Shown in pieces: positions 42,865 to 45,442 of a stretch of DNA of 63,346 bases. The position numbers were made by a program, and so were the translations under genes. The stretch spans positions 1 to 63,346 of the forward strand of contig JAGOOP010000008.1 in NCBI GenBank assembly GCA_017992455.1. The letters are read 5' to 3'. This DNA comes from Candidatus Omnitrophota bacterium. Lineage in GTDB: Bacteria > Omnitrophota > Gorgyraeia > Gygaellales > Profunditerraquicolaceae. The notes beneath the pieces were generated by a model. The model worked only from the letters and a program-made list of their open reading frames with translations. It ran no database searches and was not told where the DNA came from. Numbering within the stretch: position 1 is the first letter of the stretch; every line of letters starts with the position of its first letter.

Positions 42865-44480
42865 AAGAAAGACCCAAAGTCAATCAATGGGTTGAGAGGT
42901 AACAATAAGTAAACAGAGCCTTTTTCCAAATTTTCCTATATATATCGGAGAGTTTGATCCTGGCTCAGAGTGAACGCTGGCGGCGTGGATTAGGCATGCA
43001 AGTCGAGCGATGCTATTTGTTGAGAGGTTGAAGCCGCAAGGCAGATGCCAATTGACTTTTAGCAGAGCGGCAAACGGGTGAGGAATACGTGAGTAATCTA
43101 CCTCTATGTCGAGAATAACCTCGCGAAAGTGAGGATAATGCTTGATGTGGACAATGCCCCATAAGGGGTGTTATCTAAAGGTACCCGCAAGGATATCGCA
43201 TAGAGATGAGCTCATGCTCTATCAGCTAGTTGGTAGGGTAACGGCCTACCAAGGCGAAGACGGATAGGTGGCCTGAGAGGGTGGTCACCCACAAGGGGAC
43301 TGAGACACTGCCCCTACTCCTACGGGAGGCTGCAGTCGAGAATATTTAGCAATGGACGAAAGTCTGACTATGCGACGCCGCGTGAGGGATGAAGGTTTTC
43401 GGATCGTAAACCTCTTTCGATAGGGAAGAAACTCCCTGTTCGTAAGGACAGGTGCTGACGGTACCTAGAGAAGAAGCCATGGCCAACTCCGTGCCAGCAG
43501 CCGCGGTAATACGGGGATGGCGAGCGTTACTCGGATTTACTGGGTGTAAAGGGCAGGTAGGCGGTTTTGCAAGTTGAAGGTTAAATCCTCTGACTCAATC
43601 AGAGAGCTGCCTTCAAAACTACATTACTTGAGGATTGGAGAGGAGAGCGGAATTCCAGGTGTAAGGGTGAAATCTGTAGATATCTGGAGGAACACCCGTG
43701 GCGAAAGCGGCTCTCTGGACAATATCTGACGCTGAACTGCGAAAGCTAGGGGAGCAAACAGGATTAGATACCCTGGTAGTCCTAGCCGTAAACGATGAGC
43801 ACTAGGTGTCGGGGGTTAAACCCTCGGCGCCGTAAGCAAACGTGTTAAGTGCTCCACCTGAAGACTACGACCGCAAGGTTAAAACTCAAAGGAATTGACG
43901 GGGGCCCGCACAAGCGGTGGAACATGTGGTTCAATTCGATGCTACGCGAAGAACCTCACCAAGGCTTGACATGCAGGAAGTATGAAGCTGAAAGGTGGAA
44001 GACCTGTCAAGTCAGGAGCCTGCACAGGTGCTACATGACTGTCGTCAGCTCGTGTCGTGAGATGTTGGGTTAAGTCCCGCAACGAGCGTAACCCCTGTTT
44101 CTAGTTGCCACTTTCAAAGCCGCAAGGCCGAGAAAAGCACTCTAGAGAGACTGCTCGGGATAACCGAGAGGAAGGTGGGGATGACGTCAAGTCCGTATGG
44201 CCTTTATGCCTTGGGCTACACACGTGTTACAATGGCTACTACAAAGCGTCGCCAACCCGCGAGGGGGAGCTAATCGCAAAAAAGTAGCCTCAGTTCAGAT
44301 CGGAGTCTGCAACCCGACTCCGTGAAGCCGGAATCGCTAGTAATGGCGGATCAGCTACGCCGCCGTGAATACGTTCCCGGGCCTTGTACACACCGCCCGT
44401 CAAGCGATGGGAGCCGGGGGTACCTAAAGTACTCTAGCAATAGAGTCCTAAGGTAAAACTGGTGACTGGCGCTAAGTCGT

Positions 44481-45233
44481 GAAGTAAAGTTTGCGACCTT
44501 CCGATGTAAATCGGAATGAGAAATTCGGCTGTATGCTGGAACATCCGTAGTATCTCAAGATACCGAAAGGTGAAAATTCTTGAGTGCGGACAATCAGCAG
44601 GGAAGTCGTAATTGACCCCTCAGAGACTACACGCCGACCTCTTAAGGAGCAAAGCTTGGATAAAATAACCGTTGCTTATCTTCAAGGAACCTTGGGAGAT
44701 TCAACGTATAGCAAATTGCATAAGACGTATAGAATATCTCAGAATAATAGAGAATGGTTGCTTATGCTTAAAAATTTGCTTCAGTCGTTGGAGATCAAAG
44801 GATGGATATATAAAGAAGGCAAATCCAGGGACGTATATGTTCTTGAGACTACCTTCCAATCTTTATCCGGAGATTTTGATCCCTGTTCTCTCGAGACTAC
44901 CGAAGAAAAGCAAGCATATATACGCGGTTATTTTGATGCTGAAGGAGGCACTTCCCGAGTTAATACGGTCAGATTTTATCTGCAGTTCGCAGAGAAAAAT
45001 AAGACACGAATCGAGAAGGTCCGGAATCTCCTGAAAGAATTAGGGATCAATTGCGGGAAAATTCATAATCCCAGCAAGGTAACCGATCCTGATTATTGGA
45101 GATTTTATGTCAGTGCTGATTCCTACGATAAATTCGTTAAAGAAATCGGATCCTGGCATCCTAGAAAGCAGAAGCTTTTATCCAAAAGAGTGAAGATATA
45201 GTCCACGCTCTGTGGCGACACAGGGAGTACGTG
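44481..45233 (+). mobile_element. Group I intron in 16S rRNA (between E. coli-equivalent U1498 and A1499), 753 nt
   Basis: The flanks AAGTCGT|..|AACAAGGTAGCC restore the universal AAGTCGTAACAAGGTA. The 5' exon ends in T and the intron ends in G. IGS GCGAC (44493-44497) pairs with GUCGU via a G.U pair. Core motifs CAGAGACTACACG and GAAGATATAGTCC are present. Confidence 0.85.
44656..45201 (+). CDS. Double-motif LAGLIDADG homing endonuclease encoded in the 16S intron
   Basis: The motifs are 'VAYLQGTLGDST' and 'AYIRGYFDAEGG'. A likely TTG start at 44656 follows an AAGGAG SD (the listed ORF starts at GTG 44584). The TAG stop lies inside the GATATAGTC core motif. Confidence 0.75.
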   Translation: MDKITVAYLQGTLGDSTYSKLHKTYRISQNNREWLLMLKNLLQSLEIKGWIYKEGKSRDVYVLETTFQSLSGDFDPCSLETTEEKQAYIRGYFDAEGGTSRVNTVRFYLQFAEKNKTRIEKVRNLLKELGINCGKIHNPSKVTDPDYWRFYVSADSYDKFVKEIGSWHPRKQKLLSKRVKI

Positions 45234-45442
45234 AACAAGGTAGCCGTACCGGAAGGTGCGGCTGGATCACCTCCTTTCTAATAATTTCGATACCTTGGAG
45301 ATTATTAGTTTGACTTGGAAGGCGTGGTTTGCGCAGGCAAGCCAACATGCGACAAGTTAAATCAGGTAAGCCCTTCAACAAGGCTTACCGGCTTGGCTAT
45401 TTAAAAAATTTTGCGTTGCTATGGGTAAGTTATATCAAAAAC

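Follow-up and report, generated by a model that had tools for sequence, protein, structure and literature searches.

A group I intron with a putative LAGLIDADG homing endonuclease gene interrupts an Omnitrophota 16S rRNA gene between U1498 and A1499

Results and Discussion

The stretch analyzed here, referred to throughout as the window, comprises 63,346 nucleotides of contig JAGOOP010000008.1 from a Candidatus Omnitrophota bacterium (GenBank assembly GCA_017992455.1) and carries one ribosomal RNA (rRNA) operon. The 16S gene of this operon is interrupted by an insert that, judged by its sequence and its covarying core, is a group I intron, located between the nucleotides equivalent to U1498 and A1499 of Escherichia coli. 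An open reading frame (ORF) in one of its loops appears to encode a homing endonuclease. We consider it very probable that the insert is a self-splicing, homing-competent mobile intron. Its position, the architecture of the ribozyme, the fold of the encoded protein and the distribution of the intron among other genomes are described below, and the coordinates of all features are collected in Table 1.

Position and boundaries of the intron

The motif AAGTCGT at 44474-44480 and the sequence AACAAGGTA at 45234-45242 are separated by 753 bases, which delimits the insert to 44481-45233. The window 16S without these bases was aligned to E. coli K-12 rrsH, the reference for the 16S coordinates given here. 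The two sequences are collinear at 76% identity, with U1498 opposite the final base of the 5' exon and A1499 opposite the first base of the 3' exon. The insertion is therefore placed between these two nucleotides, inside the 1492-1510 segment targeted by primer 1492R. This point lies 5-6 nt 3' of A1492/A1493, adjoining the decoding site, where the 3' strand of helix 44 (h44) reaches the top of the helix. Neither junction is flanked by identical bases, so that the boundary is unambiguous and cannot be slid. When the unspliced 16S gene was aligned globally to E. coli, the insert was dispersed over numerous short gaps in the divergent h44, and this alignment was discarded; the 23S part of the unspliced-operon alignment was clean.

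An earlier note on this DNA had proposed an intron in the 16S gene between AAGTCGT and AACAAGGTA, within the 1492-1510 segment and near A1492/A1493. The rrsH alignment bears out this location and fixes it at 1498/1499, and the Rfam score, the U.G pair of P1, the omega-G and the covarying core presented below support the assignment to group I. The span given at that time, 44474-45240 (767 nt), contains the intron and takes in seven exon bases too many at each end.

The Rfam model of the bacterial small subunit (SSU) rRNA overruns the end of the 5' exon, with helix 45 and the 3' tail forced onto the P1-P2 region of the intron. The model ends the 16S gene at 44501 (44532 in a local search), and the P2 hairpin is mis-aligned as helix 45.

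Table 1. Features of the interrupted 16S gene, its intron and the surrounding rRNA operon in the window.
Feature	Position	Strand	Basis
16S gene, interrupted	from 42942	+	
16S 5' exon (E. coli 1-1498)	42942-44480	+	Rfam SSU_rRNA_bacteria, 1393 bits; rrsH alignment ends at U1498
AAGTCGT, 5' half of the 1492R target (E. coli 1492-1498)	44474-44480	+	sequence; primer matching
Group I intron, 753 nt, first base G, last base G (omega-G, 45233)	44481-45233	+	Rfam; E. coli alignment; 75 related loci
Internal guide sequence GUUUGCGAC	44489-44497	+	read from sequence; GUUGCGAC conserved in related introns
P2 hairpin, UUCCGAU, loop GUAA, AUCGGAA	44499-44516	+	RNAalifold; 4 to 6 standard pair types per position, 73 introns
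P3-P6 core	44525-44637	+	RNAalifold consensus; compensatory changes; Rfam alignment
P3	44525-29 with 44633-37	+	
P4	44534-39 with 44594-99	+	
P5, plus extension	44545-47 with 44587-89	+	
P6	44600-02 with about 44617-19	+	
P7, GACUA / UAGUC	44625-44629 with 45199-45203	+	five pairs invariant in 73/73 introns; Rfam alignment
P8, CUCUU / AAGAG, ORF in loop	44639-44643 with 45186-45190	+	Rfam alignment; covariation
Shine-Dalgarno-like AAGGAG, 6 nt 5' of TTG	44644-44649	+	sequence; same AAGGAG-N6-TTG in L001
Predicted homing endonuclease gene, 181 aa, TTG start	44656-45201	+	ORF list; Pfam; database gene call P0001; AlphaFold2; Foldseek; I-DmoI profile
P9 hairpin, CUCUGUG, loop GCGA, CACAGGG	45208-45225	+	RNAalifold; 7 pairs, up to 6 pair types
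16S 3' exon (E. coli 1499-1542), AACAAGGTAGCC, helix 45, anti-Shine-Dalgarno CCTCCTT	45234-45277	+	E. coli alignment; 1525R/1541R sites match
rRNA operon, one copy: 16S, tRNA-Ile(GAU), tRNA-Ala(UGC), 23S, 5S		+	
tRNA-Ile(GAU)	45443-45516	+	
tRNA-Ala(UGC)	45562-45635	+	
23S gene	from 45883	+	
23S insertion after E. coli 1917, 676 nt	47857-48532		
23S insertion after E. coli 1931, 194 nt, no ORF	48547-48740		
23S insertion after E. coli 2500, 413 nt	49311-49723		
23S insertion after E. coli 2604, 744 nt	49828-50571		
5S gene	51131-51247	+	

Architecture of the ribozyme

The insert matches the Rfam family Intron_gpI (RF00028) with 54.4 bits against a gathering threshold of 50 (E 4.8e-11). The match covers 44471-45225 and model positions 1-253; in this alignment P8, the helix after P3', has a large insertion in its loop. 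Homologous introns were retrieved from other genomes and their ORFs removed, and 73 cores, including that of the window, were aligned and folded as a consensus with RNAalifold. The P8 and P10 of the window are one column out of register in this alignment, and their counts consequently under-represent the window; its own P8 and P10 pairings were checked by eye.

P1 is formed by the exon sequence GUCGU (44476-44480, E. coli 1494-1498) and the intron sequence GCGAC (44493-44497), with all five pairs present in 73 of the 73 introns. At the 5' splice site it contains the U.G wobble U1498.G44493. The other end of the intron is marked by the omega-G, G45233, which stands directly before AACAAGG; a terminal G is found in all 75 related introns. 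A candidate P10 is provided by GUU (44489-44491), just 5' of the guide, which can pair with AAC of the 3' exon (45234-45236).

Compensatory changes across the 72 homologous introns were found in P2, P3, P4, P5, P8 and P9, and P7 is invariant. They include a concerted switch of four pairs in P4, from GCUG/CAGC to CGGU/ACCG, in 13 sequences; in P2 and P9 as many as six pair types occur at a single position. The two strands of P8 compensate each other across the ORF, with CUCUU/AAGAG in the window versus CUUCG/CGAAG in the nearest intron relative, L001. A folded and presumably functional ribozyme thus has good comparative support. By its J8/7-P7 sequence, GAAGAUAUAGUCC, the intron may be of an IC-like subgroup.

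The endonuclease and its gene

The frame in the P8 loop is open from GTG 44584 to 45201 (205 aa), and the database call (P0001) comprises 181 aa of it. We infer that TTG 44656 is the start rather than GTG 44584, because a perfect AAGGAG sits 6 nt upstream of it and in view of the database gene calls. The in-frame stretch upstream of this codon (44584-44655), which encodes the peptide …ISREVVIDPSETTRR…, is conserved in many homologues. Since the stretch coincides with the P4'-P6-P7-P3' core, its conservation probably acts at the level of the RNA. At either end the endonuclease frame runs into the ribozyme core, and its stop codon UAG (45199-45201) lies within P7'. The AAGGAG directly abuts the P8 5' strand CUCUU, and the two may pair (CCUCUUAAGGAG); it is a matter of speculation that such pairing might couple translation to folding.

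Pfam LAGLIDADG_3 matches the ORF in two stretches, with E values of 1.4e-17 to 2.3e-17. Across 25 diverse homologues, the acidic residue of motif 1, AYLQGTLGD (D15), and that of motif 2, GYFDAEGG (E96), do not vary. The full-length ORF retains all 38 positions that are invariant across these homologues, both catalytic acidic residues included. An AlphaFold2 model built on the homologue alignment reached a pLDDT (predicted local distance difference test) of 93.7 and a pTM (predicted template modeling score) of 0.90. A Foldseek search of the PDB with this model ranked some thirty I-DmoI chains first, which match along the full length (~184 columns) with an E value of 1.6e-9 and a TM score of 0.66. 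I-Tsp061I and the N-terminal LAGLIDADG domain of WhiA followed, and the bI3 maturase and I-AniI were also among the structural matches. The model and these matches support a two-domain alpha-beta-beta-alpha-beta-beta-alpha fold.

A family profile reaches I-DmoI with an E value of 2e-4 and superimposes the D of motif 1 on the ...GD of I-DmoI and the E of motif 2 on its ...AEG; a single-sequence search of PDB sequences with the ORF gave chance matches only. The double-motif LAGLIDADG ORF in the P8 loop, which had been recognized earlier from the letters of the sequence, is accordingly found again, its location through the Rfam alignment and the compensation in L001, its motifs through Foldseek and the I-DmoI profile. 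I-DmoI itself is an archaeal enzyme whose 23S intron belongs to another type and whose target site differs. The window protein has the same size as I-DmoI (Desulfurococcus mobilis 23S intron; PDB codes 1b24, 2vs7 and 2vs8), ~180-190 aa, and the same two-domain pseudo-dimeric fold; both LAGLIDADG helices align with their acidic residues matched, at only 23-26% identity. Sequence and model together indicate that the ORF product is a compact, monomeric double-motif LAGLIDADG homing endonuclease of the I-DmoI-like type.

Distribution of the intron

The protein collection contains 1220 homologues of the endonuclease. Relatives were found in 251 GTDB species genomes when an alignment of homologues was used for the search; a scan of the species genomes with the single endonuclease sequence gave no matches, and the alignment was needed to find them. 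The flanks were analyzed at the level of the locus for the best 80 loci. In 75 of these the gene lies in an intron of ~710-830 nt with the arrangement AAGTCGT/intron...G/AACAAGG(T/C)A, and the guide GUUGCGAC is conserved. The flank patterns did not recover both exon motifs in the other five (L020, L028, L040, L053 and L073), of which L020 and L073 appear to sit in a different context. At least 75 other species genomes thus share both the intron and its endonuclease at this very position. This recurrence, together with the Rfam and Pfam E values, excludes a chance resemblance.

The hosts are mostly Patescibacteria, the Candidate Phyla Radiation (CPR), and also include Omnitrophota (L001, L002 and L004), Chloroflexi, Acidimicrobiales and Solirubrobacterales. 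The last two orders belong to the Actinomycetota, and their carriers of the 1498 intron and endonuclease (L044, L052, L055, L056, L062, L068 and L024) are contigs of 0.5-3.4 Mb, a length that makes mis-binning unlikely. This distribution shows that the intron family is well established outside the CPR.

The 21-mer just 5' of the junction is present in 65 species genomes, nearly all labelled Omnitrophota, and in all 65 of them the junction is an uninterrupted AAGTCGTAACAAGG without the intron. A comparison of relatives with and without the insert, as had been suggested beforehand, therefore sets at least 75 genomes that have it beside 65 flank-sharing genomes that lack it. The closest species genome, L129 (Omnitrophota RA.bin37), is intron-less and shares 92.2% identity over the whole 5' exon. 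The nearest species genome with the intron, L001, is likewise from the Omnitrophota and shares 86% identity in the 16S 5' exon. Closer carriers are two metagenome contigs from two other JGI (Joint Genome Institute) samples, L147 and L148, in which the exon is 98.6%, the same intron 87% and the endonuclease 82% identical, and in which the Omnitrophota-type flank CTGGTGACTGGCGCTAAGTCGT is joined to the intron. By its sequence, the host of the window intron is a member of the Omnitrophota and stands outside the CPR. Because L147 and L148 carry the intron and the 65 flank-sharing genomes lack it, we consider the intron to be fixed in one narrow lineage, whose broader relatives are without it, a pattern that fits a homing element gained by transfer.

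Splicing, homing and alternative explanations

The architecture suggests the following course of splicing in vivo. The intron would be transcribed within the rRNA precursor, in which the guide GCGAC would pair with exon nucleotides 1494-1498 to form P1. The 5' splice site, with its U.G wobble, would then be attacked by an external guanosine bound at P7. The short P10 (GUU with AAC) would align the 3' exon, the terminal G45233 would enter the G-binding site, and ligation of the exons would yield ...AAGUCGU-AACAAGG... (junction AAGUCGUAACAAGG), a normal decoding-site strand. The endonuclease in the P8 loop would be made from its own Shine-Dalgarno motif and TTG codon and is expected to be active. 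Its predicted target is the uninterrupted AAGTCGTAACAAGGTA of intron-less 16S alleles (DNA carrying ...GGCGCTAAGTCGTAACAAGGTAGCCGTA...), and a cut allele would be repaired by copying the intron in, which constitutes homing. Homing would explain the presence of the same intron at the same nucleotide in distant phyla, and the element may well be mobile at present.

The 1494-1498 region pairs in the mature 16S rRNA with 1404-1407 at the top of h44. Since P1 makes use of the same nucleotides, splicing would have to precede the closure of the decoding site. The 1498 family might, as a traveller between phyla (Omnitrophota, Chloroflexota, Actinomycetota and possibly Armatimonadota), be a checkpoint or timer of late 30S assembly and not a neutral passenger, an idea that we regard as a long shot.

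Some observations weigh against a self-splicing, homing-competent intron. The window has one extra U between the P10 guide and P1 with respect to the GUUGCGAC of most relatives, and the start codon of the endonuclease is itself a prediction. The nearest solved relative of the enzyme is only about 23-26% identical, and for some of the related loci the host was assigned through a metagenome bin.

The part of the proposal that concerns mobility would have to be altered if the ribozyme splices and the element is immobile, with an endonuclease that is inactive or serves only as a maturase and with vertical inheritance of the intron. Vertical descent within the lineage is compatible with the exon of L147 and L148 being 98.6% identical and their intron only 87% (endonuclease 82%), and the structural matches include LAGLIDADG proteins of the maturase type, such as the bI3 maturase and I-AniI. 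The ORF is nevertheless full length, with the 38 invariant positions and both catalytic acids kept, and is preceded by a strong Shine-Dalgarno motif. In addition, the patchy distribution across phyla and the intron-less close relatives form the signature of ongoing or recent homing, and an immobile intron is considered unlikely.

It is also conceivable that host RNases remove the insert without ligation, and that the 16S rRNA works as a 1-1498 molecule with a 44-nt 3' fragment. Intervening sequences of this kind are known in bacterial 23S genes, and fragmentation has been discussed for some CPR insertions (PMC11270868). An intervening sequence of the RNase III type has a stem that pairs its ends and no ribozyme core. 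The insert in the window has, by contrast, a complete covarying group I core, and the RNAalifold consensus of the 73 cores is devoid of a helix joining the ends, the usual RNase III substrate. Both of its splice sites follow the exact U/...G/ rules, and the guide pairs with both exons. These features argue against excision by RNase III, because splicing requires them and such excision does not, and make a fragmented 16S rRNA very improbable.

An assembly chimera, in which a CPR intron was misjoined into an Omnitrophota 16S gene, can practically be dismissed: assembly and binning of rRNA operons from metagenomes are difficult, and the intron family is carried mostly by CPR, but both junctions are at the exact nucleotide demanded by the intron's own guide, the independent contigs L147 and L148 have the same junctions, and the nearest intron relatives are also found in Omnitrophota 16S genes (L001).

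Relation to known rRNA introns

The nuclear SSU rDNA group I introns S1506, S1512 and S1516 of fungi, algae and protists are located in the same conserved 3'-terminal region, near the decoding center, as the mobile-type intron described here. They occupy other nucleotides, reside in eukaryotic nuclear genes, and their endonucleases are usually of the His-Cys box and not of the LAGLIDADG type.

Insertions in CPR rRNA genes have been surveyed, and their recurrent sites named, by Tsurumaki et al. (2024, J Bacteriol; PMC11270868). The survey reports group I introns at several 16S sites, and several of these, 16IS10 among them, are listed there as unreported in any known bacteria. LAGLIDADG_3 ORFs are confined to 16S insertions in that survey, and share sites 16IS5 and 16IS10 with LAGLIDADG_2 ORFs. 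The paper mentions an insertion 'at position 1498 of the 16S rRNA gene', and its LAGLIDADG_2 proteins fall into two distant clades. We infer that 16IS10 corresponds to position 1498; the supplementary text of the paper contains neither '1498' nor '16IS10'. A CPR rRNA-intron LAGLIDADG enzyme, I-ShaI, cuts its own insertion site (PMC11270868), and such insertions are removed from transcripts according to Brown et al. (2015), as cited in that paper.

The kind of intron and its site have thus already been described in the CPR (2024), and the Omnitrophota are a new host phylum; no description of a 1498 intron in Omnitrophota was found in the literature searched. The window intron shares its coordinate with the CPR insertions at 1498, and the Patescibacteria genomes found here have the same core, the guide GUUGCGAC and an endonuclease of the same family at 45-56% identity. 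The differences lie in the host and in the ORF, which is LAGLIDADG_3 in the window, whereas the text of the paper names LAGLIDADG_2 at 1498. The CPR proteins are mostly single-domain, and the LAGLIDADG_3 members have an N-terminal non-domain region (PMC11270868). In the window endonuclease, unlike those proteins, the N-terminal half is itself a LAGLIDADG domain, the second in the chain and a divergent one.

Group I introns in bacterial 16S genes, some with homing endonuclease genes, have been reported by Salman et al. (2012, PNAS); their host phylum and insertion sites differ from those of the window intron. PMC11270868 presents these bacterial 16S introns as the only ones that were characterized experimentally.

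Other introns of the rRNA operon and its relatives

The four insertions in the 23S gene (Table 1) all have Rfam group I intron matches, one above and three below the gathering threshold. Three of the sites, 1917, 1931 and 2604, are listed as recurrent in the 23S genes of the CPR (PMC11270868). Intact ORFs are present in the insertions at 1917 (47944-48543, 199 aa) and 2604 (49943-50485, 180 aa), each with a single Pfam LAGLIDADG_1 match (E 1e-20 and 2e-26, respectively), a family that differs from that of the 16S intron enzyme.

The 23S gene of L129 (3504-7419) is interrupted much like that of the window. Its large subunit (LSU) match spans 3484 nt for a model of 2925 positions, a group I intron match lies at 6147-6340, and a displaced 3' LSU fragment is found at 7344-7419. 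The 23S introns therefore seem to be older in the lineage than the 16S intron, which L129 lacks. Contig L147 has an extra insertion of ~815 nt (~636-1450) at a point that matches window position 44393 (~E. coli 1399/1400), with a 155-aa LAGLIDADG_1 ORF; the window is without this insertion. Position 1400 is a CPR site of reported group II-like introns with LAGLIDADG genes (PMC11270868).

Implications for 16S surveys, annotation and the intron family

Even at the best-matching site in the genomic DNA of the window, three variants of primer 1492R are mismatched at 5-7 positions, as against 0-1 on the spliced sequence. Pairing is limited to the last 7 nt at the 3' end of the primer (44474-44480), and amplification with 1492R should thus fail and not produce a longer fragment. 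Primers 27F, 341F, 515F, 806R, 926R, 1391R, 1525R and 1541R match perfectly, and a product ~750 bp longer is expected only with the further-downstream primers 1525R and 1541R. The previously known bacterial 16S group I introns of 2012 reportedly lengthen or defeat polymerase chain reaction (PCR) with universal primers.

The earlier note had anticipated that 1492R would fail or give a product about 750 bp longer, and that the lineage would be under-sampled in PCR surveys. The 5-7 mismatches agree with failure and speak against a longer 1492R product. Under-sampling is to be expected for full-length 1492R amplicons of the intron-bearing lineage and does not extend further: V3-V4 and V4 surveys would detect the organism, as 27F, 341F, 515F, 806R, 926R and 1391R match perfectly, and the 65 flank-sharing genomes are intron-less. 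The organism and its close relatives would hence drop out of full-length 16S surveys that employ 1492R.

Automated rRNA annotation would end this 16S gene too early and overlook its actual 3' exon (45234-45277), which is worth knowing for the annotation of Omnitrophota genomes and for the placement of their 16S sequences in reference databases. The intron reveals no new mechanism. It adds a non-CPR host to an intron family that has so far been catalogued for the CPR and, together with the intron-less close relatives, documents the horizontal spread of a homing element into a highly conserved ribosomal site.

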